Of a stretch of 64,000 nt of DNA, positions 970 to 16,605 are shown one piece after another (the stretch's first letter is position 1; every line of letters starts with the position of its first letter). The notes under the pieces were generated by a model, which ran no database searches, had not been told where the DNA came from, and saw only the letters and a program-made list of their open reading frames with translations. Made by a program: the position numbers and the translations under genes. Origin of the DNA: Escherichia phage BAU.Micro_ELP-22; sequence record OR699282.2; one strand, 5' to 3'.

Positions 970-1101
970 GTGCAAATAAAAACCAATGTGACTTTTCCTT
1001 GATATAGGTCAAGAGAAATAACCTGTTCTGACGCTATAATGTTGTCTGGTGATATTAAATATCTTCACCCCCAGATGATTTCAAAATACAAGGAATGTAC
1101 A

Positions 1102-2907
1102 ATGCAATTAGATAAATTATATACTGACGTAACGAATTTCCTCAATCAGAGCAATACTGATCTTACCAACGAAAATGCGAACAAAGATGCGAAATGCGTC
1201 AATACACACAGGGATTTACTTGCAGGTATCCTATCTAAGCATTATTCACAAGATGTTATTCCAAATGAGCTAATGCAGTGGCATAATGATGGTTATGGTC
1301 ATATTCATGATTTAGACTACTATATCAGCCCATTAACCAACTGTTGCTTAGTTAACTACCCAGATATGCTAAAAAATGGATTTACCATTGGTTGTGCCAA
1401 AATTGAAGAACCAAAGAGTTTTAGTGTAGCATGTACAGTACTGACACAAATTGTTCAGGCTGTTGCTAGTTCCCAGTATGGTGGACAATCGTTGGCTCAT
1501 ATTGACGTTGGTCTTGAACCTTACGTTCAAAAGTCATGGGATAAGCTGTTAGAAAAACAAAAGAAATATAATCTAAGTGATGAATTCATTGAAGAAGAAC
1601 TACGAAAAGAAGTATACGATGGCTGTCAAACATTACTTTACCAAACTAATTCAATGATTAGTACTAATGGTCAAGCTGCATTTATTTCTCTTAGTTTAGG
1701 TCTTAATACTTCTAAATTTGGTAAATTAATTACTGAACAGTACTTAAAAGTTCATGAGAATGGTTTAGGTAAAGATAAGATTACTCCAGTGTTTCCTAAA
1801 GTTATTTTCTTTCTACAAGATGGTATAAACATGAATGCAAATGATAGCAATTATGACCTCAAACAGTTAGCTATGCGTTGTGCATCAAAAAGAATCTATC
1901 CAGATTTTGTTTCAGTACCATTAAATCACAAAGTGACTGGAAGTAGTAGTACTGCTGTAACACCGATGGGCTGTCGTTCATTCTTAGGAAAATGGGAAGA
2001 TTCAAATGGAAATGAACAATATAACGGTCGTTTCAATTTAGGCGTAGTTTCTATCAATTTACCTCTAATTGCTCTTGAGAGTGCTTCTGATGGAGAGTTT
2101 TTTGATAAGATAGACGAGCACATGAATATTGCATATCGTGCTCAGATGAACCGTGTGGAGCGTTTAAAAGGCACTAAAGCGAAGCAGAATCCAATTTTGT
2201 TCATGGAAGGTGCATTAGCACGTTTAGGTGCAGAAGAAACCATTGACAAGCTATTTTACAATGGTTATGCTAGTATTAGTATTGGTTATGTTGGTCTTGT
2301 TGAATGTTCAGAAATCCTCACTGGTTCTATCAGTAAGGAGTTTTGTATGTCAGTACTGAATTATATGAAAGTAAAATGTGATGAGTTCAAAAAAGAAAGT
2401 AATATTGCTTTTAGTCTATATGGAACTCCAGCAGAGTCGCTTTGTTATAAATTTGCACGTTGCATTGAAGCAAAATATCCTTCAGTACTAAAACGTGATT
2501 ACATCACAAATTCCTTCCATCAACCAGTATGGGTAGAAAGTTCTCCATTTGATAAATGGAGTTATGAAGAAGGGTTTGCTTACCTAAGTAACGGTGGAAA
2601 CATCAGTTATGTTGAATCTCCAAACTTAGCAAACAACATTCAAGCACTTGAAACATTAGTTAACTATGCGTACACTAAGATACCATATTTTGGTATTAAC
2701 CAACCAGTTGACCATTGTTATGAATGTGGCTTCCAGGGTGAGTTCAGTGTAGATAAACATGGTTTCCACTGTCCTGTATGTGATAATCGTAATGAGAAGA
2801 CAATCTCAGTGATTCGTCGTGTTTCTGGGTACTTGGGTAATCCTTCTTCGCGTGGCTTCAATAAAGGCAAGCAACAAGAGTGTTGTGAGCGTATTCAGCA
2901 CAAATAA
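1102..2907 (+). CDS. nrdD: anaerobic ribonucleoside-triphosphate reductase, class III (glycyl-radical enzyme)
   Basis: NENANKD, QRDLLAGI, PMGCRSF, CYECGF...CPVCD zinc site and C-terminal RRVSGYLGNP glycyl-radical motif, matching E. coli/T4 NrdD from memory. ORF track starts at 1039 overlapping a TATAAT; start moved to the Met at 1102, which has an AAGGA RBS 7 nt upstream. No ATP-cone, as in T4. Confidence 0.9.
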   Translation: MQLDKLYTDVTNFLNQSNTDLTNENANKDAKCVNTHRDLLAGILSKHYSQDVIPNELMQWHNDGYGHIHDLDYYISPLTNCCLVNYPDMLKNGFTIGCAKIEEPKSFSVACTVLTQIVQAVASSQYGGQSLAHIDVGLEPYVQKSWDKLLEKQKKYNLSDEFIEEELRKEVYDGCQTLLYQTNSMISTNGQAAFISLSLGLNTSKFGKLITEQYLKVHENGLGKDKITPVFPKVIFFLQDGINMNANDSNYDLKQLAMRCASKRIYPDFVSVPLNHKVTGSSSTAVTPMGCRSFLGKWEDSNGNEQYNGRFNLGVVSINLPLIALESASDGEFFDKIDEHMNIAYRAQMNRVERLKGTKAKQNPILFMEGALARLGAEETIDKLFYNGYASISIGYVGLVECSEILTGSISKEFCMSVLNYMKVKCDEFKKESNIAFSLYGTPAESLCYKFARCIEAKYPSVLKRDYITNSFHQPVWVESSPFDKWSYEEGFAYLSNGGNISYVESPNLANNIQALETLVNYAYTKIPYFGINQPVDHCYECGFQGEFSVDKHGFHCPVCDNRNEKTISVIRRVSGYLGNPSSRGFNKGKQQECCERIQHK

Positions 2908-2915
2908 GGTAAATT

Positions 2916-3248
2916 ATGGATTTAAAGCCAATTGTGGTTAACAAATACAAAGAACCGTATGATGTGTATATTGGACGTGGGTCTAAATGGGGAAACCCAT
3001 TTACCCATATTAAAGATAAACAAACCAAAGCCGAGTTCATTGTTAGTACAAGAGAAGAATCAATTGAAAAATTCAGAGAATACATTATTGAACGTATTTC
3101 TTGTGGAGAAGTTAAGATTGATGAATTACTTGAACTCGCAGGGAAACGCCTTGGTTGTTTCTGTAAACCAAAATCATGTCACGGCGATGTTCTTGTCGAA
3201 ATAGTGAGTGCAATATTAGATGAATTACCAGACGATAATCAAGGATGA
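2916..3248 (+). CDS. conserved small protein, DUF4326-like (YDVYIGRGSKWGNPF motif)
   Basis: Motif YDVYIGRGSKWGNPF...CFCKPKSCHGDVL recalled as DUF4326-type; sits between nrdD and nrdG; 3' end overlaps the nrdG start by 29 nt. Confidence 0.45.
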   Translation: MDLKPIVVNKYKEPYDVYIGRGSKWGNPFTHIKDKQTKAEFIVSTREESIEKFREYIIERISCGEVKIDELLELAGKRLGCFCKPKSCHGDVLVEIVSAILDELPDDNQG

Positions 3249-3690
3249 TTTAGTAAATGGAGAGGGCGTTCGCTGCTCTTTATTTGTTAGTGGGTGTTCG
3301 CACGGATGTGATGGTTGCTTCAATGAAGAAGCATGGGATTACAGAAGTGGTCAATTGTTCAGTACTGAAACAGTTGAGATTATACTACAGGAACTAAAAA
3401 AACCATATGTTAGTGGTTTGTCACTTCTAGGCGGCGATCCATTAATGAAAAAGAATATAGATGAAGTTTTAAATCTATGCAAAGTAGTTAAAGAAACTTA
3501 TCCTAGTAAAACTATTTGGTGCTGGAGTGGGTATACTTTAGATGAGATTATGAAAAATCATGCTAAAGATATACTTCAGTACTTAGATGTATTAGTTGAT
3601 GGTAAGTTTATTGAGTCCGAAAAGAATTTAAAATTACCTTTCCGTGGTTCAAATAATCAAAGAATACTATATAAAAATAAAGATTTTTAG
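3220..3690 (+). CDS. nrdG: anaerobic ribonucleotide reductase activating protein (radical SAM)
   Basis: N-terminus MNYQ...VNGEGVRCSLFVSGCSHGCDGCFN with a CxxxCxxC-type cluster; 156 aa, same length and N-terminus pattern as T4 NrdG from memory. Confidence 0.85.
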   Translation: MNYQTIIKDDLVNGEGVRCSLFVSGCSHGCDGCFNEEAWDYRSGQLFSTETVEIILQELKKPYVSGLSLLGGDPLMKKNIDEVLNLCKVVKETYPSKTIWCWSGYTLDEIMKNHAKDILQYLDVLVDGKFIESEKNLKLPFRGSNNQRILYKNKDF

Positions 3691-3766: not shown

Positions 3767-6463
3767 ATGTCAAAGAAAATATATGGTGGCTTAGATGTCA
3801 CACATAATGTGACAGTTAATGGTAAAAGAACAATTCAAGGAATAAATGAACAAGTTTTTGATTCCAACGGTAACTTGGAATTAGATACTTATTCCAGAGA
3901 TGAAGTACTAGATATAGTAAGTATGATGCCAATCTCCCATTATGGTTCACAAAACTATCTACCTGCGGGTGTTTCTGGGGATTTCAATGGTGCATCAGAA
4001 AACCAGTCACAACGTAGAAATAAAATTTTATTAGAAAACGATGGTACACTAGTACTTTTACGTAGTGGGACAAACGGTAGTGTTGAGGGATTATTTTATT
4101 CATATTTGGCTAACGCATTATCAGTTGATGACATGAGCCGTACAATTAACACCAGTCGTCAATACAAGCCTGGGTTTTTTGGTTCAAATAGAGTTGCGAT
4201 TGGTTTATACAATACTGATCCAAATATTTTACTCGGTAGATATATTGATACTTCTAACAGTACTAATGGTTTGTTCATATCAATTACCAATGGTACATTA
4301 GATGATAAATTGCATACTGGTTTTTTCGTTAACCAAGCAGATATATCACCTGAAGGTGGTATTGAATATGCTATGATGGCAGAAGATGGTTCTATATATG
4401 TTTTTAACGTACTTAATGAAAATAACCAACTACAATTAGTTGTTGTTAAAGTTGTTTATAATATAAGCAATGGTACTTATACTGCAACTCGAATTACTGG
4501 ATGGACTACTAAAACATTTTATAACACAACTTATTCTGCACAAAATAATATGGTTATTACTAATCAGGTAACATCAACAAATATTGCTGATAAACCTTAT
4601 GTGTATGTTCCACAAAATCTACGTGGTATTGGGATTTACATGACATCAATTGATTTATATGTTGCACAGCAGCCAGGAACGCAGAATTTCCGCTTTAGAA
4701 TGAACGGGGACGCTTGGTTTACAATGGCAACATATAATACACGTCCACAGCATAGTTACAGTTTTGTGTTCAATATGAGTACTAAACAATGTACATTAGA
4801 TGCAGGTAACGATATTGGTTCATATCAAGCACCATTAGTTATAACTAATACTGGTTCGGCATTAGTTCCTACTGGTAACGTTTTAAATAACGATCCATTG
4901 TATAACCATGCAAATGCAAGAAACATTTATAGTTCATATTTTTATTTGAATTCTGGTGAAGCTTTTTGTACTGCATGTCCAAACTTAGCAGAACCATTAC
5001 TTATGCAAAAAGCTAAGTTTCCTATTCAAATAGTTTATAGTATGCTGAATGTCCGTGCTGTACTTTCTACTGACTTCAAAGGTGGTATAGTTCGCCCGTC
5101 TTTTGGTTCAGCGGTTGGTTCATTTATTAATGGTGTAGAATTACTACCAGATAACAGTACTAAACAATATTCACGTGCATCAGGTAGTGGTGGATTTAGA
5201 CCATCATATGCAGTTCATAAAAGTACTCCTAATTTTACATTTAAATCATTATCTTTAGGAACAATACAAGGTTATGAACCTACAGTTGAACGTGCTAATG
5301 TTGATGATAATGCAAATAATAGAATTTTTATTAGTAGTATTTCTGGGTCAACTGTCACAACCAATGGTGGTATTTTTATGGTTGGGCAACGTTATTCACA
5401 ATCATTATCCTATGATAAAAACTTAAATGGCACAGGAATTATAAGCGTTACACAATCAGTACTGGACAATTTTAGAAATACTGAATATGCCAAAGTTCTA
5501 AGTGATTGGAATTTATCAGCACAAGCATACCGTGATATGACACTATTTGTTCCACAACAAACAGACATTCCAGCTTTTGTTATGTTGAGTACAATTACTA
5601 ATGATTATAGAAACTATATTAGAATTGCTGAAGTTAATGTCAATACTAGAGTTGGTAATATTACATCTATTACATTTAAGCGTTTAGTACTTGAGAATAC
5701 GTATGGTGATAACTTTACACCAACTGGGAATGGTTCGATTGCATCTTCTTCTGTTGGTTTGACAATATATGATGGTGGTTCATTCTACTTCATTGGTGGT
5801 TCTGACCCATTATCACATCCAACAATAGGTAATACTGCAACTCATCAATTTAGAGCATATGTAACTAAATCAACTGCACAATTTACAAGTTTTATAATTA
5901 CTGGTTCTCATGCCAGTTATGAACAAGGAAGTCAACCAGCAGCATTACCTGGTATTGGTTTTGGAATTTTTGAACCAATTGATTACTCAAATAAAATGAC
6001 ATTCAAAAAATATGGAACAACGATTGCAGACTATAATAACTGGACTGCACAAGGTAGCCCAATTAACGTAGTATCCCAGGACGTTGCTCAAGGGTTTATT
6101 GTATATTTTACAGAGGAAACACCAGTTATTCTTTCAGGTAAGTCATTTTCACTACCAGTTTCAAATATTGATTTGAGAACTATTAAGTCTAATCCAGCAA
6201 ATACAACATTTTATGTATATGTTAAATTGGAACAAGGATTGGCAAACTATTACATAACTACTGATGTTATTTCTGAAACAGGAACAACTGCATATAATAT
6301 TTTTTGGATAGGTACAATTCAAACTAATGCAATTCAAATCGAAACAATTAATATACAAAAACGTTCCCGTTTAGATATATTTGGTGCTTCACTTGAATCA
6401 GCAGGTTCATCGTTCCCAGTTAGCTACGGTCTACCATCACAAACAGGAACCATAAACTGGTAA
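3767..6463 (+). CDS. large virion fibre/adhesin-like protein, paralog 1 (898 aa)
   Basis: Long Ser/Thr/Asn/Gly-rich ORF; shares an N-terminal motif (RDEVLDIVSMMPISHYG, LRSGTNGS) and a C-terminal module (VVSQDVAQGF...KSNPANTTFY...SSFPVS.G.PS.TGT..W) with 6475 and 7079. Confidence 0.6.
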   Translation: MSKKIYGGLDVTHNVTVNGKRTIQGINEQVFDSNGNLELDTYSRDEVLDIVSMMPISHYGSQNYLPAGVSGDFNGASENQSQRRNKILLENDGTLVLLRSGTNGSVEGLFYSYLANALSVDDMSRTINTSRQYKPGFFGSNRVAIGLYNTDPNILLGRYIDTSNSTNGLFISITNGTLDDKLHTGFFVNQADISPEGGIEYAMMAEDGSIYVFNVLNENNQLQLVVVKVVYNISNGTYTATRITGWTTKTFYNTTYSAQNNMVITNQVTSTNIADKPYVYVPQNLRGIGIYMTSIDLYVAQQPGTQNFRFRMNGDAWFTMATYNTRPQHSYSFVFNMSTKQCTLDAGNDIGSYQAPLVITNTGSALVPTGNVLNNDPLYNHANARNIYSSYFYLNSGEAFCTACPNLAEPLLMQKAKFPIQIVYSMLNVRAVLSTDFKGGIVRPSFGSAVGSFINGVELLPDNSTKQYSRASGSGGFRPSYAVHKSTPNFTFKSLSLGTIQGYEPTVERANVDDNANNRIFISSISGSTVTTNGGIFMVGQRYSQSLSYDKNLNGTGIISVTQSVLDNFRNTEYAKVLSDWNLSAQAYRDMTLFVPQQTDIPAFVMLSTITNDYRNYIRIAEVNVNTRVGNITSITFKRLVLENTYGDNFTPTGNGSIASSSVGLTIYDGGSFYFIGGSDPLSHPTIGNTATHQFRAYVTKSTAQFTSFIITGSHASYEQGSQPAALPGIGFGIFEPIDYSNKMTFKKYGTTIADYNNWTAQGSPINVVSQDVAQGFIVYFTEETPVILSGKSFSLPVSNIDLRTIKSNPANTTFYVYVKLEQGLANYYITTDVISETGTTAYNIFWIGTIQTNAIQIETINIQKRSRLDIFGASLESAGSSFPVSYGLPSQTGTINW

Positions 6464-6474
6464 AGGATTACATA

Positions 6475-7062
6475 ATGGCATATAAAATAAGAGCAGACCT
6501 TAAGGCAATGCAACAAGTTACAGTTCAGGGTAAAAGTACTGGTCTTGGTGTATTAGGTAATAATATGACTTATTACCCAACAAATTCAAATGGGGAATGT
6601 ACATTCCCCTCTATTACCAAAGATGAAGTTAACTTTATTGTCAATGGATTACCACTTACACAATACGGAGAATTGTATGATGACGCTAGTCTAAATATTA
6701 CTTCATCAGGCTATAGTCTTACATTTAACAGACAGATACCATCATTTATTGGTGGTTATCTTTATAAATTTCCAGCAGTTTCTATTTTTGCTTCAACTGT
6801 TTCATCTGGAACACAAACACAATACGTATATGCAACGTTAGTTCTCGGTGAACCAATTTATAAAATATCACCAACACAAATACAAGAATCTGAAATTATA
6901 ATGTTTATTGGTACTCTGACCGTTGGTACAAGTGGTATTACAAATATAAACATTAATAAAGTATCCAGATTTAGTACATATAGACCTAGTGTTACACAAA
7001 AAGGTTCTTCATTCCCAGTCAGTACTGGAAAACCATCAGAAACTGGTACAATTGGTTGGTAA
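6475..7062 (+). CDS. short paralog (195 aa) carrying the N- and C-terminal modules of the flanking fibre-like proteins
   Basis: TKDEVNFIVNGLPLTQYG near the N-terminus and ...RPSVTQKGSSFPVSTGKPSETGTIGW at the C-terminus. Confidence 0.5.
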   Translation: MAYKIRADLKAMQQVTVQGKSTGLGVLGNNMTYYPTNSNGECTFPSITKDEVNFIVNGLPLTQYGELYDDASLNITSSGYSLTFNRQIPSFIGGYLYKFPAVSIFASTVSSGTQTQYVYATLVLGEPIYKISPTQIQESEIIMFIGTLTVGTSGITNININKVSRFSTYRPSVTQKGSSFPVSTGKPSETGTIGW

Positions 7063-7078: not shown

Positions 7079-9808
7079 ATGTCATCAAAACGAATTATAG
7101 GAAGTGCCGAGATCCTTGGGAACTTGGCAATTGGACAAAGGTACGCTATGCGTACTTTTAATGGAACCTCACCGAATGCCAATACTGGAATTGTTCAATA
7201 TCCAATATATAAGCGTTCAGAAGTTCAAAGTATTTTAGATATGTTGCCTATATCACGTGTAGGAGAAATGGATTACTTACCATTAAACGTAAGTGGGTCG
7301 TATGAAGGTGCTACACCTATGTCAAGTGACCAAGTAGTTCAGCCAACAATTATTGAAGATGATGGAACCGCCGTTGTTCTGCGTAGCGGAACCAATGGTA
7401 GTACTAAAGGTTTTTATTATTCATTTATACGAGAAATCAGAAATATAACTATGATTTCACAAGAAAGTGTTATTTCAACCAATTCAATGTATAAACCTTC
7501 AATTATGAGTAGTACTGAAAATATTAAGTATTTTATTGGCTCTAATGGTTATGAGATGCTTGGATGTTTAAGTACTGAAGATAATTATATTTTTACTATA
7601 ACCAATGGCACATTTAACGAAATATCACATATTCATGCTAAAGTGCCAAGTACTTCTTTTGGTAATGATATGCCAATATATACACATATTGTTGGGACAA
7701 AGGTTTATATTTGGTGTAAAGATAAAAGTGTTTCTAATTTAGGATTAGCACTTTCAATTTATACAGTAGAGCTAAGTGATGTGAAAGCAAGCTCAATGGC
7801 ATCATTAACAAAAGTTACTGGGTTATCAGGTCAAACTGTTCGAAACACAAGTTATTCTGCATCTAATAACATAAGAGTGTTCGATAAATTATATAGTGTT
7901 GGTACTAGCTCGGATTCATTATTCGAAGTTACATCACCAGTATCACGTGTAGAATTTTCAGACTATACAGACTTTAACATTCAAGCCAACGTTAGTCCTG
8001 ATTTATCAAAAATACGTGTAACTTTATATCCAACACATCGAATGGTTACACCTTTGTATATTTCAACAGTTTATGGTACTGGAATCAGTTTTGTTTATAA
8101 TATAAACTCAAAATCTATGTCACTAGATGGTAGTGCTCGTGCACCTGCAACTGTTTCATATAATAATGGATTTCAAGTTTCTAACCCATTTGAAATTAAT
8201 ATGGTCAACTTCACAGGGACAACTGCTGCTGGTGTATTAGGAAACGCAGGTGGTTTATGTCAAACTAAAGATGGTTTGGTATTTGCATCTAAATTTAGAT
8301 GGAGTTCAACTGAATTTTATGGTCTACAACGATATAAGGTTAGTGGTACACCGTTTGATTCATGGGTTGCCAGTACTAGAACCGCAAGTAACGTTATAAA
8401 TGCAAACGTTTTACCAGTTTTTGGTAGTGCTGTTGGTGCAAACCTTTTAGGTGTACGTTTCATCGATAATAGAAAAATATTATTAGCATGTTCTGGTACG
8501 TATGATGATGTAACATATAATTATAATAATACTGTTTTTTCTGAAATAGGTTCACAACCAACATATCAATATAACTCAGTTCAAAATAATACTACATTAA
8601 ATGGTTTTGCACCACAATCTAATCGTAAACAAATAGGCGATGATTTTACATACACTGCTATGATTTCTCTTGTTGATACCGATGGTAGTGTTAGATGCTA
8701 TGGAACATCATTCATTGAAGGTGTATATAAAACAAGTGGTGGATTATTAAATCCAGATACTTTAGAATTTGATGAAACATATACAATAGAACCAACGGTA
8801 TTAGAATCATTAAAACAAGATATTTTTGCTAATATAGGAAACTCTGGCATTGTTGGTACACTATCTGGACAAATTGTATTATATTATGTACCTGATAATA
8901 CTTTTTCTAAATCCATCGCAGTAGTTTCAGCATATAATCTTAACAATAACCAAGGTTATGCAATCTATGCCGAAGTTGATGTTGTATTATCTGGAACTAA
9001 CATAACTTCAGCTACATTGGTGAGTACTAGATATGAAACACTGAGTTCTGTTACAGGAATTATTACTGAAGCATATATGAAACGTTGTACTGGTCTAACA
9101 GTTGCAAAATATTCAGGATTTGGTTACATTGGTGTTGATGCCGTTCATCAATTTTCACAACCAGGTAATGCACAATTTAAGATGATGATAGCTAAAACAG
9201 TAGATGGTGTCATAACATCAAATCGTTTTTTATCATCTAGTTACATCCAACTTGGTGCAGCATATCAACATGGTGTTATTCCTGGTGTTGGTTTTGGATA
9301 TTACAATTTTCAAGATTCTGACTATCAAACCAAATCTGTATTCAGCGTTTTTGGTACAACATCTGCTGAAATGGATGGTTTAATTAGTGGAAATGGTAGC
9401 GTTAAAGAAAAGATTGTGGTAGTATCACAAGACGTTGCACAAGGATTCTCAGTGTACTTTACACGTGAAGTTCCGGTGTTTTTAGGTGGAATTTTCGACA
9501 GACTACCTATACAAAGTGTTGATTTAAGTACTGTAAAAAGTAACCCAGCTAATACTACGTTCTATTTGTATATACAAATGAACAGGAATACTAAGAAAGC
9601 GTCATATGTTATTAGTACTGAAACAATTGATGAATCTTTAACTAGCACTTACATTGGTAAGATAGTTACTGGAACTTCAGGAATAACTTCAATTGATACA
9701 GAAAAAGTAACTCGTTTTTTGACATATCGTCCAAGTACAACGAAACGTGGTTCAGCGATACCTGCCAGTACTGGTGTACCATCAGGTCCAGGTACACGTT
9801 GGAAATAA
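7079..9808 (+). CDS. large virion fibre/adhesin-like protein, paralog 2 (about 909 aa)
   Basis: ORF track starts at 6989 overlapping the previous gene; start moved to Met 7079 with AGGA RBS. Shares KRSEVQSILDMLPISRVG, LRSGTNGS and the C-terminal VVVSQDVAQGF...KSNPANTTFY...TGVPSGPGTRWK module. Confidence 0.6.
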   Translation: MSSKRIIGSAEILGNLAIGQRYAMRTFNGTSPNANTGIVQYPIYKRSEVQSILDMLPISRVGEMDYLPLNVSGSYEGATPMSSDQVVQPTIIEDDGTAVVLRSGTNGSTKGFYYSFIREIRNITMISQESVISTNSMYKPSIMSSTENIKYFIGSNGYEMLGCLSTEDNYIFTITNGTFNEISHIHAKVPSTSFGNDMPIYTHIVGTKVYIWCKDKSVSNLGLALSIYTVELSDVKASSMASLTKVTGLSGQTVRNTSYSASNNIRVFDKLYSVGTSSDSLFEVTSPVSRVEFSDYTDFNIQANVSPDLSKIRVTLYPTHRMVTPLYISTVYGTGISFVYNINSKSMSLDGSARAPATVSYNNGFQVSNPFEINMVNFTGTTAAGVLGNAGGLCQTKDGLVFASKFRWSSTEFYGLQRYKVSGTPFDSWVASTRTASNVINANVLPVFGSAVGANLLGVRFIDNRKILLACSGTYDDVTYNYNNTVFSEIGSQPTYQYNSVQNNTTLNGFAPQSNRKQIGDDFTYTAMISLVDTDGSVRCYGTSFIEGVYKTSGGLLNPDTLEFDETYTIEPTVLESLKQDIFANIGNSGIVGTLSGQIVLYYVPDNTFSKSIAVVSAYNLNNNQGYAIYAEVDVVLSGTNITSATLVSTRYETLSSVTGIITEAYMKRCTGLTVAKYSGFGYIGVDAVHQFSQPGNAQFKMMIAKTVDGVITSNRFLSSSYIQLGAAYQHGVIPGVGFGYYNFQDSDYQTKSVFSVFGTTSAEMDGLISGNGSVKEKIVVVSQDVAQGFSVYFTREVPVFLGGIFDRLPIQSVDLSTVKSNPANTTFYLYIQMNRNTKKASYVISTETIDESLTSTYIGKIVTGTSGITSIDTEKVTRFLTYRPSTTKRGSAIPASTGVPSGPGTRWK

Positions 9809-9813
9809 ATTTA

Positions 9814-9842
9814 AAGCTCGTCTATTGACGGGCTTTTCTTTT
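9814..9842 (+). terminator. intrinsic terminator (gctcgtc-tatt-gacgggc + T-run)
   Basis: Stem with one G-U pair followed by TTTTCTTTT after the 7079 gene. Confidence 0.45.
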
Positions 9843-9853
9843 ATGTGTATAAT
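9825..9853 (+). promoter_or_regulatory. sigma70-like promoter (TTGACG-17-TATAAT)
   Basis: -35 TTGACG embedded in the terminator stem, 17-nt spacer, -10 TATAAT; AGGAGG RBS before the 9876 ATG. Confidence 0.35.
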
Positions 9854-9875
9854 TGAATAAAAATAGGAGGAAATT

Positions 9876-10442
9876 ATGGTCAAAACTTTATTACCACCAC
9901 CAAAACGTCACAAAATCAAAGAAATGAAAGAACAACGTACATTAAAGATGTACAACAATTTAGTTAAGTTACTGTGTAAAAGTCCATCGCTCAAAGCAGA
10001 GTTTAAAACTGATGATGACCGTAAAGCACTAATTGAGATGAAATATATGCTCAGTAAAATGTCCTTTTACAAATTTGTAAAAGAATACGCATCTGACCCA
10101 TTTAGTCCTCGTTGGAGAGCCAAACCAAGAGAGTATTTTTACGGTGGTTCATATACAGATCGCATTCAAGACACAGTGATGGGAGTTGAATTTGAAATCG
10201 ATTATGAGCCGAATGGTGAGGAAATCTTGCAGATTGAGAAACGTTTACCAAGTGAAGAAGAAATTTATGTTTATGCAAGAAAACTTTCAACTTACAGTTC
10301 AAGAATTACTCTAGGCAATTTAGATTCATTAATTATTTTCTATACACGTGTTGGTGTAGATAAGATGGTAACTAAACTCAATGAACTTTCATTACAACAA
10401 AAACAGATTAATGCATACAAAGACATTACTGATTTATACTAA
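9876..10442 (+). CDS. hypothetical protein, tandem paralog family member 1
   Basis: Shares D-x-D-R-K-x-L-I-E-x-KY-x-LSK and a downstream W/Y-rich segment with 10449 and 10967. Confidence 0.5.
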   Translation: MVKTLLPPPKRHKIKEMKEQRTLKMYNNLVKLLCKSPSLKAEFKTDDDRKALIEMKYMLSKMSFYKFVKEYASDPFSPRWRAKPREYFYGGSYTDRIQDTVMGVEFEIDYEPNGEEILQIEKRLPSEEEIYVYARKLSTYSSRITLGNLDSLIIFYTRVGVDKMVTKLNELSLQQKQINAYKDITDLY

Positions 10443-10448
10443 TGAGGA

Positions 10449-10970
10449 ATGGATATGTTTTTTGGATCAGTTGGAAAACAAAACAGTACTTTAATTTGGC
10501 ATGAAATTATCTTTAAAATTATATCTAAAAGCTACTCACTAAAGGATATTATCACCACAGATAATGATAGACGTATCCTGTTAGATGCAAAATATAAATT
10601 GAGCAAACACCCTTTACTTTCTTTAATCATTGATTACGTTAATGATTATGAATCTAGTCGTTGGAAGTGGGAAGACGGCGGTTTATTTCGTGGAAAAACA
10701 TTCTACGGTGCGGAACGATATGTTTTCAGTGATGCATCAAATGGCGTTAAGTTTGTTATTAGAAACTTTAACTCCAAAGAAAATGATTATCTTGAAAGTG
10801 GAGTGAAAGTATATATCGATAATAATAGCAATGTCCTAACATATGACGAATCACTAATTATGTTACAAATAATGCGTGGTGTTGAAGGTGTAAGAAACAA
10901 CCTTACTAAATTGAAAATCCAGCAAAATGATATACATAATAGACAGAAAATTAAGGGTTTATATAAATGA
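10449..10970 (+). CDS. hypothetical protein, tandem paralog family member 2
   Basis: TDNDRRILLDAKYKLSK motif aligning with neighbours. Confidence 0.5.
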   Translation: MDMFFGSVGKQNSTLIWHEIIFKIISKSYSLKDIITTDNDRRILLDAKYKLSKHPLLSLIIDYVNDYESSRWKWEDGGLFRGKTFYGAERYVFSDASNGVKFVIRNFNSKENDYLESGVKVYIDNNSNVLTYDESLIMLQIMRGVEGVRNNLTKLKIQQNDIHNRQKIKGLYK

Positions 10971-11476
10971 TTTCATTTTTCAAAAAGAAACAAAAAGTTG
11001 ATGAAACAGGATTAGAATCGTTTCTATGGACTCTTATCATCAAAAAAAGTCCATTGATAAAAGAATATGCTATCAATGATGCTAATAGAAAAACTATCAT
11101 TGAATACAAATACGAATTATCAAAATGTGATCCAATCGTTTATCACTTTGCGAAGTACTGTTCAAAAAATTTATCGGATATCACAATAGACCATGAGTCA
11201 GTTCCAATGAGCTTTCCTTATGGTGATTGGGTAGATACTTTTGATATTTTTGATGGGTCCAATGGATTCAGTTTCTTTTACTCGTCAAATAAAGCAAATG
11301 TTCGTATTAAAACAGAGATAGGTTGGGCACAGCATAGCTCAAATAAAGAAGATTATAATTTACTAGCTGACGTATACCGAAGTGTGAAGAATTCAAAGGA
11401 TATTGATGAAAGAATTAAAAAGCAAAATCGTATTTCTTTATCACTTGAAACATACAAGTCAAAGTATGGTGGTTAA
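10967..11476 (+). CDS. hypothetical protein, tandem paralog family member 3
   Basis: NDANRKTIIEYKYELSK motif; 4-nt overlap with upstream gene. Confidence 0.5.
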   Translation: MISFFKKKQKVDETGLESFLWTLIIKKSPLIKEYAINDANRKTIIEYKYELSKCDPIVYHFAKYCSKNLSDITIDHESVPMSFPYGDWVDTFDIFDGSNGFSFFYSSNKANVRIKTEIGWAQHSSNKEDYNLLADVYRSVKNSKDIDERIKKQNRISLSLETYKSKYGG

Positions 11477-11478
11477 CG

Positions 11479-11880
11479 ATGACTACAGTTGATGATATCT
11501 ACAGCACTATACGCAATATGAGTACAGATAGAAAAGTATTTGGTGATAAAGAAAAATCTAAGTGTTATGGTATTGATTCTTTTGATATAATTTCTTATGA
11601 GTACAACACGAGTGGAAATAGTTCACTGAATATCGTCTGCCCTCGTGACCCAGAAAATAATTTTATGTATGTTGAAATTAATAATGATGGAATATTTTTT
11701 ACAAAAGTTTTTAAAGGTGGAATTAATTACGAACCAATTGAATGTATGAATGAAGAAACTTTCTTTCAAGAAGATACAATTATCAATTTAGGTTTTAGTT
11801 TTGATGATTATAAAACATTAGAACATGACTTTAATCGTTATTATAACGGTTTCTTAAAGGAGTTAACAATTTATCTATGA
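11479..11880 (+). CDS. hypothetical protein (133 aa)
   Basis: ORF in the same array; no clear motif. Confidence 0.4.
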   Translation: MTTVDDIYSTIRNMSTDRKVFGDKEKSKCYGIDSFDIISYEYNTSGNSSLNIVCPRDPENNFMYVEINNDGIFFTKVFKGGINYEPIECMNEETFFQEDTIINLGFSFDDYKTLEHDFNRYYNGFLKELTIYL

Positions 11881-13109
11881 ATAACCAATATGTTGAACAA
11901 ACAATAGTGAAACACTTGGCTGGGTCACAAGCCTACGGAACCAGTACACCTGAAAGTGATACTGATTATCGTGGTATTTTTCTTGCTAATAAAGAATTTA
12001 TTCTTACGCCATTCTATAAGGTCAAAGAAGTAGCTGATAAAAATGAAGAAGATACTAAATTCTATGAGTTAAATCAGTATTTAAAATTATACACTGAAGC
12101 CAACCCTAATATATTGGAATCACTATGGGTCGATCCAGAACACATTGTAGAAAGTACTGAGATTTATGACTATCTTCGTTCATTTAACCAAAAACTTCTT
12201 AGTTCCAAGATTGCATTTTCATACACTGGATATGCATATAATCAGATTAAGCGTATGACAAATCATCACGGTTGGATGGATAAAGAGCGTATTGCTGAAA
12301 AACGATTAAATGAGATTTTAGAAGAACACCCTGTCGATGAGGTTCTTGCGTGGATGTATGATTCATTCCCACAGTATCTTGTTGAACGTTTAGATACATC
12401 CAACTTACATCCATTTAATGCTAAAAAGATTGATTTTGAAAAATATATGCGTGATACGTCATTGCAGTTAGTTTCGAAAAATCCATTAAAGCAATATCAT
12501 TTTGTAAGATTAGTGCATAACTACACTACTGAAAAAATTCTTGATCGTGATTTCAATTTATTGAATTTTAATAATGGTTATGAACTAATTCATTACGGAG
12601 AAAACATTTTTGCGATTATTAAAAATCCGAATGAAAGCACTATCAACGGTGATGGATCATTGCGTTATTTTTCTAAAGAGCGTAGTACTGAAGAGTTGAA
12701 AACCAAACCAGAACTAATTGTCAAATTTAACGAAAAAGAATATCAGGAAAATAGTGAGAATAGGAAAAGTTATCATAAATGGAAAGAAAATCGTAATGCC
12801 AAACGTGCTATTTTAGAATCACAACACGGATACGATTGTAAACATGCTATGCACACAATCCGACTTTTGAATAGTGCAGAAGAAGCATTACAAAGTGGAA
12901 TTATTCAAGTTAAACGACCAGATGCACAAATGTTGATGGATATTCGTAATGGTAAATGGAAGTATGAAGAAGTATTAGAATATTTCGATGATAAAGTACA
13001 ATACATTCGTGATGTTCTATATAAGAAATCAGTACTTCCTAAAAAACCAAACATCAAGTTAGCATCAAAAATTATCATTGATATTAGAGAAATGCAATGG
13101 TATAAGTAA
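11877..13109 (+). CDS. Pol-beta-superfamily nucleotidyltransferase (410 aa), specificity unknown
   Basis: N-terminal HLAGSQAYGTSTPESDTDYRGIF = G-S-x9-S-D-x-D signature of minimal nucleotidyltransferases; further acidic residue in LWVDPE. Confidence 0.5.
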   Translation: MNNQYVEQTIVKHLAGSQAYGTSTPESDTDYRGIFLANKEFILTPFYKVKEVADKNEEDTKFYELNQYLKLYTEANPNILESLWVDPEHIVESTEIYDYLRSFNQKLLSSKIAFSYTGYAYNQIKRMTNHHGWMDKERIAEKRLNEILEEHPVDEVLAWMYDSFPQYLVERLDTSNLHPFNAKKIDFEKYMRDTSLQLVSKNPLKQYHFVRLVHNYTTEKILDRDFNLLNFNNGYELIHYGENIFAIIKNPNESTINGDGSLRYFSKERSTEELKTKPELIVKFNEKEYQENSENRKSYHKWKENRNAKRAILESQHGYDCKHAMHTIRLLNSAEEALQSGIIQVKRPDAQMLMDIRNGKWKYEEVLEYFDDKVQYIRDVLYKKSVLPKKPNIKLASKIIIDIREMQWYK

Positions 13110-13186
13110 CATATACAAGTGTAATGGTACTAAAAATGCCATTACACTCAATAAATACTCAATATAAATTAACACAAGGATTAAGT

Positions 13187-13315
13187 ATGGCACAACAAAT
13201 TTTCACAGATATCCACACTACCGGAGTTATTAAATTTCAAAATAATTTTTCAGGTGCAACTGGTGTAGACATTAAAAATGATGGTTTTAACATTGTCAGT
13301 ACTCGGATCTATTGA
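13187..13315 (+). CDS. small ORF (42 aa) overlapping the start of the next gene
   Basis: Start chosen at Met with AGGA RBS (ORF track 13124); ends inside ORF 13278, which is in the +1 frame. Confidence 0.25.
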   Translation: MAQQIFTDIHTTGVIKFQNNFSGATGVDIKNDGFNIVSTRIY

Positions 13316-13814
13316 TGGTGAAGATAGTTCTCTTAGTGATTCTGTGATTGCATCATTCGGAACTAATAAAAACAGTTCTTTTATTATATCTGGATGGACT
13401 GGAATGACTGATTCTGAAAATAATGTTAAGATAAAAGCTAAAGCTACTAACGAGAATCATGAAACAGAATGGGTAACATTATATGATAGTGCAAGTAATA
13501 AGTTATATAATGTATTAAGTTCTAATAATATTTTAATTAATCCACTGTCGGGTAATGCTGTTTTTAATATTAATTTATCTGATAGAAATACTACTATTTC
13601 GATTGGTGCGGCTCCTACTGAAGTTTATTCAATTACCATCCTATTAACACAACAAACAGGTTCAAACCTAGTTAATTGGGGTTCTAATGTTAAATGGTCA
13701 TATAACAGACCAGTTGTTCTTTCTTATGAAATTGGTGAAAAAGATATTATTTCATTAGAAACATATGATAAAGGAGTTACATGGTACGGTGCATTAATTA
13801 GAGCAGGAGTATGA
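13278..13814 (+). CDS. hypothetical structural-type protein (178 aa)
   Basis: Ser/Asn/Thr-rich ORF directly upstream of the large 13816 gene; start uncertain (no RBS at 13278). Confidence 0.4.
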   Translation: MMVLTLSVLGSIDGEDSSLSDSVIASFGTNKNSSFIISGWTGMTDSENNVKIKAKATNENHETEWVTLYDSASNKLYNVLSSNNILINPLSGNAVFNINLSDRNTTISIGAAPTEVYSITILLTQQTGSNLVNWGSNVKWSYNRPVVLSYEIGEKDIISLETYDKGVTWYGALIRAGV

Positions 13815-13815
13815 T

Positions 13816-16605
13816 ATGTTAAACAATAATATTGATAATATTGTACAACTTCTTTATGGGCATCACAAATTTATTGAAAGAAATACTGGTGATACAATAG
13901 ACCCAACAGTACAACATTATGTGGTGAATAATCAGGGTGTTTTGGCGAACAACCGTCATTTTATTAACTATTCTGCAATGGAAGGTCAACCAAACGGTGA
14001 CGGGACAACAGAAGGTCAAAGTCTATTAATTTTAGGATACATTTATGCGTATCTGGCAACAAATGATCCAATGTTTTTAGATAAAGCCAAATGGTACTGG
14101 GATGCATATCATCAGTACTTTTATGCTGGACGTGAATTACCAGATCCACCTACACCACTACAATGTAACTGGATAGTTAATGCCAAAGAACCTATATTGG
14201 CTAACTGGCCTTTAGCTGATGATGGATGGCCTACACATGGTGGTTTCAAGGGTGTAGAATTTACATTTACAAATGGACAATGTAAAATACCACATGGTGC
14301 ACCTTATTATGGTCAGTTCTTGGATAAAGTAACATTTGCATTCAAAGGTGCTTTAGCATGGAACCAAATAAATGCGTCAGTAAAAGCATTATTACCAGAT
14401 GGTAGTGTTGATTGGGATACACCAGGTGAACAATATGATGTTGACTGGATTATCGATTTCATGGGTAGAAAAATCGACTGGGATGGTAATATTTTAGCAG
14501 AAGGTTTTGACGAATCTGAAAAAGGAACTGTTCAATTAAAGAATACAACAATTAATGGTGTATATAAATTAAATTTTGCAAATCGTCAACCAGTAGAATA
14601 TGGTGGTGTGATAATTCAACGAAATGAAATGCAACACAACCGCCCACTTCATGTTCCAATTGATTTGGAATTTGCGGATAACGCATCAGATGCAGAATTG
14701 TGGTTTAGTGATGCTTCTTATTTGTTATATAAAATAACAAAAGAAAGAAAACATTATTTGGGTTGGAAATGTTCACTACTAACGTGTTATGCTTATGGTG
14801 ATATTGACTCCAGAGATAAATTTTTCAGACAAAGTACAATTGTAACCACACCATTCACTGATGGTATTTCCTATGAATATTTTTATCCAAGTGATGCTAT
14901 TGCTAAGTTTGGTAGAAATTCTCTAGGATATATTACTATCAGGCAAGACCAAAGTGCACAAAGTACAATGGAACAACAAGCTATTTGGTTCAGGGTCAAT
15001 GCTGATTCTAAATTACTTGTAGACTATGGTGGTGTATGTGATGATGGTAAGCCGTTATCATTTAAACCAGTACTGGAATTGTCAAAAACAAAAAATGACC
15101 ATGATGTTGTTCGTTATCGTTGTGGCTTACCGGAAAGTAAAGACCAAAATATCACACATTCATTAACACCTTTAAGTGCATTTGTTAGAGAAAAGAAAGC
15201 AGATGGTTCCCCTTATATAATTGCTGATAGTAGAATTGTTGTTCCTTATGGTGCAGCTACGTCCGAAATGATATATAGTACTGATATATTAGTTACACGC
15301 CGCGATACCATTAATCAGTTAGTTTGTGGTGAAGATGATGGTGCTGTTATTGGATTTTGGCTATTAGCAACAAATAAGTCTGAAGTTAAATCTTTTACCT
15401 ATCGTTCATATGAAGATGATTACAATATAAGAATTGTAGATGATAATGGTTGGAGATGGTGGTGGATGATTCCTGCAACACACGGGGAATGGACTACAAT
15501 CACACTAAGTCCCGATACATTACGTTTATCTGGGTATCAGCCAAATCATCCAAGTTCTGACCCAAGACCAGATGCACCAGTTTATAGTGAACTAGAAGAT
15601 ATTACTATTTTACCTGATACAACCCCAGTAGATGGTGTTACTGCAATAATTGATTGGTATTGTATTAATGACATTCCAGAATTATACACGGATGCTGACG
15701 GTGATGACTATACTATGACATTTTCAATAACAATTGCAGGTGAATCACCATATACTGCACAGTTAGGGGATTGTGTAATCAAAGATTATTTGTTAAACTC
15801 ATTGCATTACACACCAGGAACAATACCATTTTCTAACATCACTGACCCGTATGCGAACCAGTATTCAGGATGGCGTGGTTTACCGTATCCAGGTTATCAA
15901 TATCCTGTGATATATTGTTTTAAAGACCAGCCAGTAGATAACACACGCTTAGGAAACATGTTAAGCTTTATGAAAGATTCCCAAACATGGTTTACTCAAC
16001 AATTCGGTACTGTTGGTCCGTGTGCACAAGCATATGTTTGGAACCGCTGGGATAACTTAAAATATGGTGAACCAGATACATTTACTATGCTACATTGGGG
16101 TGATCAAGCATGGAGTGGGTATGAACCACGTGCGTTCTTTGGGGCTGCCAGAGCATGGCAAGAACTCGCAGAGAGAGGAATTGAACCACCAGCAGATCTT
16201 GTTGAATTTTGTGAGAATTGGATTCACTTTTTAATTCAATTTCAAAAAGATAATGATGGTCGTTCACCAACAATCTTCAATAAAGATGGCACAGTTGAAG
16301 GTCCAGATTGGGACTTTACAGGTCATATGTGTGGGTTGTGGTTAGCTGGGGCTTGTGCTGCTGGATTGGCTGGATGTAAAATAGAAGGTCTAACAACACT
16401 CGCTGATAACTTAGTTCTCGAACTTCAAAAGAATTATGTTATTGTAAATCCAGGTTCACCAATGAATGGTTCATGGAGTCCAGCAGTTAGAGAAGGTACT
16501 GATAATGGTATGTTTTTTGGTTTCTGGGCAGGTGAGATTATGCGTGGATTGGGATTATACTCAATGTACCGCTTAAACACACCAAATCGTTTCCGTGATT
16601 TATAA
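13816..16605 (+). CDS. large W/Y-rich protein (929 aa), putative tail-associated glycan-degrading enzyme
   Basis: Aromatic-rich composition (WYWDAYHQYFYAG, WRWWWMIP, GLWLAGACAAGLAG) reminiscent of alpha/alpha-toroid glycoside hydrolases; by impression only. Confidence 0.3.
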   Translation: MLNNNIDNIVQLLYGHHKFIERNTGDTIDPTVQHYVVNNQGVLANNRHFINYSAMEGQPNGDGTTEGQSLLILGYIYAYLATNDPMFLDKAKWYWDAYHQYFYAGRELPDPPTPLQCNWIVNAKEPILANWPLADDGWPTHGGFKGVEFTFTNGQCKIPHGAPYYGQFLDKVTFAFKGALAWNQINASVKALLPDGSVDWDTPGEQYDVDWIIDFMGRKIDWDGNILAEGFDESEKGTVQLKNTTINGVYKLNFANRQPVEYGGVIIQRNEMQHNRPLHVPIDLEFADNASDAELWFSDASYLLYKITKERKHYLGWKCSLLTCYAYGDIDSRDKFFRQSTIVTTPFTDGISYEYFYPSDAIAKFGRNSLGYITIRQDQSAQSTMEQQAIWFRVNADSKLLVDYGGVCDDGKPLSFKPVLELSKTKNDHDVVRYRCGLPESKDQNITHSLTPLSAFVREKKADGSPYIIADSRIVVPYGAATSEMIYSTDILVTRRDTINQLVCGEDDGAVIGFWLLATNKSEVKSFTYRSYEDDYNIRIVDDNGWRWWWMIPATHGEWTTITLSPDTLRLSGYQPNHPSSDPRPDAPVYSELEDITILPDTTPVDGVTAIIDWYCINDIPELYTDADGDDYTMTFSITIAGESPYTAQLGDCVIKDYLLNSLHYTPGTIPFSNITDPYANQYSGWRGLPYPGYQYPVIYCFKDQPVDNTRLGNMLSFMKDSQTWFTQQFGTVGPCAQAYVWNRWDNLKYGEPDTFTMLHWGDQAWSGYEPRAFFGAARAWQELAERGIEPPADLVEFCENWIHFLIQFQKDNDGRSPTIFNKDGTVEGPDWDFTGHMCGLWLAGACAAGLAGCKIEGLTTLADNLVLELQKNYVIVNPGSPMNGSWSPAVREGTDNGMFFGFWAGEIMRGLGLYSMYRLNTPNRFRDL

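Follow-up and report, generated by a model that had tools for sequence, protein, structure and literature searches.

A nucleotidyltransferase gene between virion genes of an Escherichia phage belongs to the RlaP family and has a probable role in tRNA repair

The locus examined here lies in a stretch of 64,000 nucleotides (nt) from Escherichia phage BAU.Micro_ELP-22 (record OR699282.2), hereafter the window, and centres on an open reading frame (ORF) for a nucleotidyltransferase (NTase). The ORF occupies positions 11877-13109 of the plus strand, runs from ATG to TAA and encodes a protein of 410 amino acids (aa) and 48.9 kDa; a Shine-Dalgarno-like box, AAGGAG, stands about 14 nt 5' of its start. 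Residues 16-35 (nt 11922-11981), GSQAYGTSTPESDTDYRGIF, carry G16-S17, ten intervening residues and D28-x-D30. Coordinates, strand, length and motif agreed exactly with those given in an initial annotation made from the letters of the DNA. The 4.2 kb tested (window 9800-14000) showed 100% identity to Escherichia phages UB and JP4 and 98% identity to phages 121Q, phAPEC6 and PBECO4, the first two of which are recorded as members of the genus Asteriusvirus (121Q group), jumbo phages of about 350 kb. The equivalents of the gene are 121Q gp506, JP4 CDS0593 and phAPEC6 gp316c, and several records (GenBank: 121Q, JP4 and others) already label it "nucleotidyltransferase".

The motif GS-x(9-13)-D-x-D occurred five times in window ORFs of at least 100 aa, once in a neighbouring tail protein, and by itself is therefore weak evidence and not diagnostic. 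Profile searches returned the family instead, with scores far above chance that we regard as decisive for the predicted assignment. The sole Pfam match of the protein was PF10127 (RlaP, RNA repair pathway DNA polymerase beta family), with an E-value of 3e-16 and 60.3 bits against a gathering cut-off of 23; it spans residues 12-131, corresponding to profile positions 23-144, and thus covers the N-terminal domain only. PHROG 388, "nucleotidyltransferase", matched the full length at E=1e-76, and a library of 1.84 billion proteins yielded 10,510 cluster representatives at E<=1e-3; every homologue listed carries PF10127. Queried with the protein or with a profile of 43 sequences, the PDB sequences returned nothing relevant, and the NCBIfam search gave no meaningful match. 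The gene thus almost certainly encodes an RlaP-family protein, and its attribution to the Pol-beta nucleotidyltransferase superfamily in the initial annotation was right on the grounds of PF10127, PHROG 388, predicted fold and acidic triad.

Conserved residues were evaluated in an alignment of 43 homologues sharing 38-96% identity (A1) and in a broader sample that also included members of about 230 aa, T4-type NrdC.11 and a 262-aa RlaP of a Bacillus phage. Among the 43 homologues the N-terminal invariants were G16, S17, Y20, G21, D28, D30, D59, E64 and N76-P77-N78, and the C-terminal ones W302, R306, N307, R310, E314, D320, K322, H326, R329, E336, R347, D349 and R357. In the broader sample G16, S17, Y20 and D30 were still invariant, while D28, D59, K322, H326, R329, E336 and R347 were kept at 90% or more. 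The predicted catalytic triad is D28/D30/D59, because in profile alignments D59, and not E64, faces an Asp in both NrdC.11 and the Bacillus phage RlaP. The acidic residues, whose loss from homologues would have spoken against a Pol-beta enzyme, were therefore kept out to T4 NrdC.11.

The alignments also indicate how the protein is built (Table 1). The 262-aa Bacillus phage RlaP aligned to residues 5-130 and 309-405 and skipped what lies between them (99.2% probability), so the phage protein is predicted to be a canonical RlaP, an NTase domain followed by a C-terminal helical domain, with an insertion of about 175 aa. Conservation is lower in the insertion than in the domains on either side of it. 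The insertion is mildly acidic and consists of a helical part (about residues 137-205, some 65 aa), found in A1 mainly in Rak2-like homologues of about 410 aa, and a small beta-rich part (about residues 206-290) common to the phage homologues of about 350 aa in PHROG 388. At least one homologue of about 400 aa that is not Rak2-like (P0104) partly fills the helical segment. The C-terminal region is basic (residues 291-410, isoelectric point 9.5) and predicted to be helical, and its residues 309-405 align to the C-terminal domain of the 262-aa phage protein. A nuclease motif of the HEPN type, R-x(4-6)-H, was considered in this domain and rejected: R310-x6-H317 is present, but H317 is not conserved among homologues.

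Two kinds of unusual homologue were encountered in metagenomic sequences. P0121 (744 aa) and P0122 (682 aa) bear an intein (Cys ... Gly-Asn) between D320 and residue 321, within the invariant C-terminal motif GYD(T/C)KH, and one of the two inteins has a LAGLIDADG_3 domain. Sites critical for function are preferred targets of intein homing, and the motif is for this reason likely to be important. In P0147 and P0165 the RlaP is fused at its C-terminus to a DEDD 3'-5' exonuclease of the RNase_T type (PF00929); the fusion would pair 3' trimming with 3' adding and suggests an activity on 3' ends.

Table 1. Position of the features discussed, in window coordinates
Feature	Position	Strand	Remarks
Two ~900-aa paralogs	3767-6463 (898 aa), 7079-9808 (939 aa)	+	PHROG 3573; 27% identical to each other
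195-aa mini-paralog	6475-7062	+	Matches first ~85 and last ~120 residues of the 898-aa paralog
Terminator-like hairpin with T-run	9813-9836	+	Read directly; directly after stop of the 939-aa paralog
Near-consensus sigma-70 promoter TTGACG-17-TATAAT	9825-9853	+	Pattern scan, 11/12 matches; candidate by consensus only
Three ~170-190-aa paralogs	9876-10442, 10449-10970, 10967-11476	+	PHROGs 18641 and 7868
133-aa ORF	11479-11880	+	PHROG 22376; stop overlaps NTase start codon (ATGA)
N-terminal NTase catalytic domain	aa 1-130, 11877..12266	+	PF10127 match, conserved residues
G16-S17	nt 11922-11927	+	Invariant in broad sample
D28 and D30	nt 11958-11966	+	Predicted catalytic Asp; D30 invariant, D28 >=90% in broad sample
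D59, predicted third catalytic Asp	nt 12051-12053	+	>=90% in broad sample; aligned to Asp in NrdC.11
Insertion of ~175 aa between the two canonical RlaP domains	aa 131-308, 12267..12800	+	
C-terminal basic helical domain	aa ~309-410, 12801..13109 including stop codon	+	Putative NTP/RNA-binding face
42-aa virion protein	13187-13315	+	121Q gp507, phAPEC6 gp315c, 4.66 kDa; overlaps start of 178-aa ORF
178-aa tail fibre protein	13278-13814	+	PHROG tail family
929-aa tail protein	13816-16605	+	PHROG tail family; phAPEC6 gp314c, found in virions
Class II CCA-adding tRNA nucleotidyltransferase	29232..30344	+	Pfam PolyA_pol (PF01743) E=9e-18 and PolyA_pol_RNAbd; annotated in JP4

A structural model of the NTase was calculated by AlphaFold2 with an alignment and reached a pLDDT of 91.5 and a pTM of 0.80. 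The model was Pol-beta-like, and a Foldseek search against the PDB returned as top matches only NTases of the Pol-beta fold, namely kanamycin nucleotidyltransferase (KNTase)/ANT(4'), HalB, MNT antitoxins, LinB and AAD(9), so that a check able to overturn the superfamily assignment came out in its favour. All these matches were weak, the best having an E-value of 0.015 with TM-scores of 0.19-0.27 and about 12% identity. KNTase/ANT(4') and HalB (Hailong), the best of them, have in common with the phage protein an NTase core and a helical C-terminal domain; at these values, and with no match among PDB sequences, no closeness to the aminoglycoside NTases beyond the common fold was found. Thus, of the enzyme classes proposed for comparison in the initial annotation, KNTase did appear at the top, at the level of the fold, whereas the CD-NTases CdnD and CdnC were reached only with E>1 and TM-scores of about 0.1, and no OAS or cGAS entry was present among the 50 Foldseek matches listed. 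The insertion had no solved structural match.

Upstream of the NTase gene the order comprises nrdD and nrdG, the ~900-aa paralogs with their mini-paralog, the hairpin and promoter, the three small paralogs and the 133-aa ORF; nrdD/nrdG are found at 1039-3690. The 898-aa paralog corresponds to phAPEC6 gp323c, a protein found in phAPEC6 virions, and the second large paralog is absent from the phAPEC6 annotation. The hairpin reads AAAGCTCGTC-TATT-GACGGGCTTT followed by a T-run and resembles an intrinsic terminator; the -35 box of the sigma-70-like promoter lies inside its 3' arm, and an AGGAGG box comes after the promoter. Four small ORFs and the NTase gene then form a compact five-gene cassette (9876-13109) read in one direction, with stops and starts that overlap. 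Hairpin and promoter, as predicted from the DNA letters, would set this cassette apart from the upstream virion gene as a probable transcription unit of its own, and suggest a unit read by the host polymerase, hence early, embedded between virion genes. Neither the ~900-aa paralogs nor any of the four small ORFs upstream of the NTase gene received a Pfam assignment, and PADLOC gave no match for the NTase or its cassette partners. A match of one small paralog to DUF2290 (E 0.005) was judged to be noise, and a homology search with one small paralog recovered close relatives only, which bear neither names nor domains. Just after the RlaP stop, at 13120-13150, an AT-rich inverted repeat, GTGTAATGGTA ... 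TGCCATTACAC, has no T-run behind it and may act in RNA stability or processing.

The published phAPEC6 virion proteome, a list of 62 proteins from a phage 98% identical across the 4.2-kb query, was consulted to see which of these products are packaged. The NTase (gp316c) is absent from the list, whereas gp314c, gp315c and gp323c are present, although absence by mass spectrometry is not proof. The enzyme thus appears non-structural. The 42-aa product, unusually small for a structural protein, was recovered in the virions at 69% peptide coverage. The three paralogs of 170-190 aa and the 133-aa protein were not detected in phAPEC6 virions. The description of flanking arrays of structural paralogs therefore holds for the ~900-aa proteins upstream, one of which is in virions, and for the tail proteins downstream, but not for the three small paralogs next to the gene.

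A survey of 80 related viral loci, from which the 42-aa ORF was left out, was carried out to examine the surroundings of the gene in other lineages. The small-paralog family stands just upstream of RlaP in all 13 Rak2-like loci, and the ~900-aa family further upstream in the 12 of them not ended early by a contig end. Homologues of the 178-aa and 929-aa tail proteins adjoin RlaP only in the 121Q locus, and a conserved functional tie to tail genes was for this reason rejected. The ~350-aa homologues of PHROG 388, from Vequintavirinae and many uncultivated viral contigs, match over the full length, beta-rich part included, and in A1 mostly lack the extra helical segment of about 65 aa; unlike the gene studied here, they neighbour either a CCA-adding enzyme, which in two Vequintavirinae phages lies 2-3 kb upstream of the RlaP homologue, or recombination genes. 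The latter arrangement, seen in about 46 IMG/VR loci of another lineage (L030-L096), has the Pfam-verified order gp32, UvsX(RecA), RlaP, a 160-aa ORF and UvsW helicase; in these uncultivated contigs RlaP sits inside a T4-like recombination module of fixed gene order.

Further arrangements were found elsewhere. A CCA-adding enzyme lies no more than 2 kb upstream of RlaP in 11 of the surveyed loci and PNKP within 10 kb in five, and one locus (L015) has PNKP, CCA-adding enzyme and RlaP within 5 kb. On a 330-kb contig of a divergent jumbo phage (L013) the order is nrdD, nrdG, two ORFs, RlaP and a GrcA-like glycyl-radical gene, with fibre-like proteins of about 990 aa encoded 2 kb downstream of RlaP. 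A Bacillus phage has nrdA, nrdB, nrdI and nrdH near RlaP. The proximity to ribonucleotide reductase or redoxin genes, seen in several lineages (the window, L006, L007 and L013), may reflect a functional link or a shared placement among early genes. The position of the gene is therefore lineage-specific and says little about function, while the recurring link to tRNA-end enzymes modestly supports a role in repair. The initial annotation had considered an enzyme of this type unexpected among structural genes; a functional anomaly is not indicated, as a survey of 2021 ranked RlaP first in prevalence among the NTases of jumbo phages (PMC7824862) and its neighbourhoods vary by lineage.

The biochemistry of the family has been described for bacterial members. 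RlaPs of P. fluorescens and P. aeruginosa were characterised by Carruthers, Fatma and Huang in a bioRxiv preprint of December 2025 (PMC12776372). The enzymes add one or two nucleoside monophosphates (NMPs) to the 3'-OH of RNA from any nucleoside triphosphate (NTP), and efficiently also from dATP, prefer Mn2+, and are inactive on genomic and synthetic DNA and on E. coli protein (PMC12776372). Of a cleaved-tRNA mimic they prefer the end on the anticodon side, and they partially restore aminoacylation to a tRNA lacking one nucleotide of the anticodon loop; in total E. coli RNA they labelled species of rRNA and tRNA size, with little NTP specificity (PMC12776372). In its crystal structure the P. 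fluorescens enzyme, PfRlaP, has an NTase and a helical domain with a basic cleft and three Asp residues that are essential, and ligases that need a 5'-phosphate accept the 3'-OH product directly (PMC12776372). The distribution of RlaP in jumbo phages mirrors that of RNA ligases, and RlaP was predicted to restore nucleotides lost from RNA ends ahead of ligation (PMC7824862).

The phage protein has the same organisation as bacterial RlaP (PF10127), with an N-terminal Pol-beta NTase domain, in which the GS motif and the three Asp lie, and a basic helical domain at the C-terminus, and the same activity, the addition of one or two NMPs onto an RNA 3'-OH, is predicted for it by analogy. It was stated in the initial annotation that the substrate could not be deduced from the DNA; membership in the RlaP family points instead to RNA 3'-OH ends, as judged from the bacterial members (PMC12776372). 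The two differ in that the phage protein has 410 aa against a family model of 249 positions, owing to the insertion, and in that its gene lies outside an RtcB/ligase operon, its likely partner being the 5'-phosphate ligase Rnl1 and not RtcB. Homology to T4 NrdC.11 extends over both the NTase and the C-terminal domain (hhalign 97.8%, E 8e-13; N-terminal domain about 28% identical), and NrdC.11 is likewise the product of a phage accessory gene. The RB14 version compared has 336 aa, with a middle region not convincingly alignable with the insertion, and in a T4-like phage the gene is part of the nrdC-mobD region rather than of a stretch of virion genes. T4 also encodes PNKP and Rnl1. A class II CCA-adding enzyme (PF01743) shares with RlaP the Pol-beta superfamily, the untemplated addition to RNA 3' ends and a link to tRNA upkeep, but is of a different family: the NTase protein has no PF01743 match and the phage has a separate CCA gene. 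That gene, the second Pol-beta NTase of the window, lies about 16 kb downstream of RlaP, and its product is a likely pathway companion.

JP4 also encodes an RNA ligase 1 of the T4 type (Rnl1; PF09511 and T4_Rnl1_C domain) and PNKP (kinase and HAD phosphatase). Family membership, predicted fold, conserved triad, domain layout and partner enzymes in the genome were all observed in the present analysis. Because bacterial RlaPs extend the 3'-OH of RNA, and because the genome has Rnl1, PNKP and a CCA-adding enzyme, we consider it probable, by analogy, that the protein is a cytoplasmic, non-virion RlaP enzyme which helps the phage to repair tRNAs cut by anticodon nucleases. For its RNA substrate, its pathway and its biological target we rely on what the bacterial enzymes and the co-occurrence of genes would suggest. 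In this model the NTP and two divalent metal ions, probably Mn2+, would be bound by D28, D30 and D59, and RNA by the basic C-terminal helical domain. On a tRNA cut by a host anticodon nuclease, PNKP would act first, removing the 2',3'-cyclic phosphate and phosphorylating the 5' end. RlaP would then transfer one or two NMPs, untemplated, onto the 3'-OH of the broken RNA and so restore anticodon-loop nucleotides excised by host nucleases of the RloC type, and Rnl1, which needs a 3'-OH and a 5'-phosphate, would finally seal the break to give a tRNA that functions again. In parallel, the 3' end of the tRNA would be maintained by the CCA-adding enzyme. The authors of the phAPEC6 study proposed that the phage may counter the Prr anticodon-nuclease system.

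Several points weigh against tRNA repair. The enzymes with measured activity are bacterial proteins of about 250 aa, from which the phage protein departs by its insertion of about 175 aa. T4 NrdC.11, placed in the RlaP family, is stated to be of unknown function (PMC12776372), and nrdC.11 is deletable in the laboratory, which also fits an accessory counter-defence role. The family takes its name from gene association with an RNA ligase; here no ligase gene adjoins RlaP, the Rnl1 and PNKP genes lying about 36 kb upstream in the JP4 genome, outside its neighbourhood. In about 46 loci, as described above, the homologue is surrounded by genes of DNA recombination. A search for tRNA genes came back empty for the window and for the ~128 kb of JP4 examined. 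The physiological model of the preprint is itself unproven, and with unspecific nucleotide choice most repair products would be wrong (PMC12776372).

Some of these points could also be accommodated by an RlaP-type RNA 3'-end transferase whose purpose is not tRNA repair but the tailing of host or phage RNA for decay, the blocking of 3' exonucleases or the modification of the ends of phage tRNAs or small RNAs. The labelling of rRNA-sized as well as tRNA-sized species with little NTP specificity (PMC12776372) and the distance of the gene from ligase and PNKP would agree with such a role, and the insertion could redirect substrate choice. The arrest of the reaction after 1-2 nt and the preference for the anticodon-side end of the cleaved-tRNA mimic (PMC12776372) argue in the other direction, as do the co-occurrence of RlaP with ligases in jumbo phages (PMC7824862) and its clustering with PNKP and CCA-adding enzyme in some phages, and we consider a purpose of this kind unlikely. 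That the enzyme serves the recombination or replication of the phage by acting on DNA ends or primers seems distinctly improbable. The placement directly between gp32/UvsX(RecA) and UvsW, the frequent vicinity of ribonucleotide reductase or redoxin genes and the efficient use of dATP by the Pseudomonas RlaP (PMC12776372) would be in accordance with it, but the Pseudomonas enzymes left both genomic and synthetic DNA unmodified (PMC12776372), and the 46 loci, closely related members of a single lineage, amount to roughly one observation, with neighbourhoods that vary among lineages.

The fold itself would allow other substrates. Synthesis of a nucleotide signal or oligonucleotide in defence or counter-defence, as by CD-NTase, OAS or HalB, is very improbable, as the likeness to these enzymes is at fold level only and PADLOC gave no match; no effector gene for a signalling synthase was found among the neighbours. 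The nucleotidylation of a small molecule or a protein, as by KNTase/ANT or the AMPylating MNT enzymes, is suggested by the top Foldseek matches, KNTase and MNT antitoxins, and by the resemblance of the C-terminal domain to HEPN and KNTase C-terminal domains; we regard it as just as improbable, the matches being as weak as reported above, no HEPN toxin adjoining the gene, the histidine of R-x6-H not being conserved and the Pseudomonas RlaP having failed to label E. coli proteins (PMC12776372). T4 RNA ligase 1 (gp63) also promotes tail-fibre attachment and offers a precedent for a role in the structure or assembly of tail fibres, which would suit the flanking virion-protein genes, the fibre-like proteins encoded downstream of RlaP in the divergent jumbo phage and the annotation of the JP4 Rnl1 as "RNA ligase and tail fiber protein attachment catalyst". 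This explanation is barely credible here: the protein is missing from the virion proteome, the cassette is predicted to have its own terminator and sigma-70-like promoter, and tail genes adjoin RlaP only in Asteriusvirus, unrelated neighbourhoods being found elsewhere.

With tRNA repair retained as the preferred role, the insertion is the sole undescribed feature found. Its confident fold, the lack of a solved structural counterpart and its partial specificity for the Rak2-like clade raise the tentative and rather unlikely idea that it may be a new module for substrate selection or docking, conferring a specificity not present in bacterial RlaPs of ~250 aa, such as recognition of one particular cleaved tRNA or handover of the product to PNKP/Rnl1; the adjacent and probably co-transcribed small paralogs might then serve it as accessory proteins within an early cassette for counter-defence.

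Publications already cover the family, its frequency in jumbo phages and its biochemistry, and the gene carries an annotation in several records; the assignment made here is correct but routine. Neither the insertion nor the conserved cassette of small paralogs is a surprise, and both are modest leads. What is gained is that the range of substrates initially listed, from nucleic acid 3' ends to small molecules, proteins and cyclic nucleotides, has been cut to one testable candidate activity, the restoration of nucleotides at RNA 3' ends upstream of ligation by Rnl1. A phage with the full set of PNKP, Rnl1, CCA-adding enzyme and RlaP would thus be a reasonable system in which to study a phage RlaP against nucleotide-excising anticodon nucleases.

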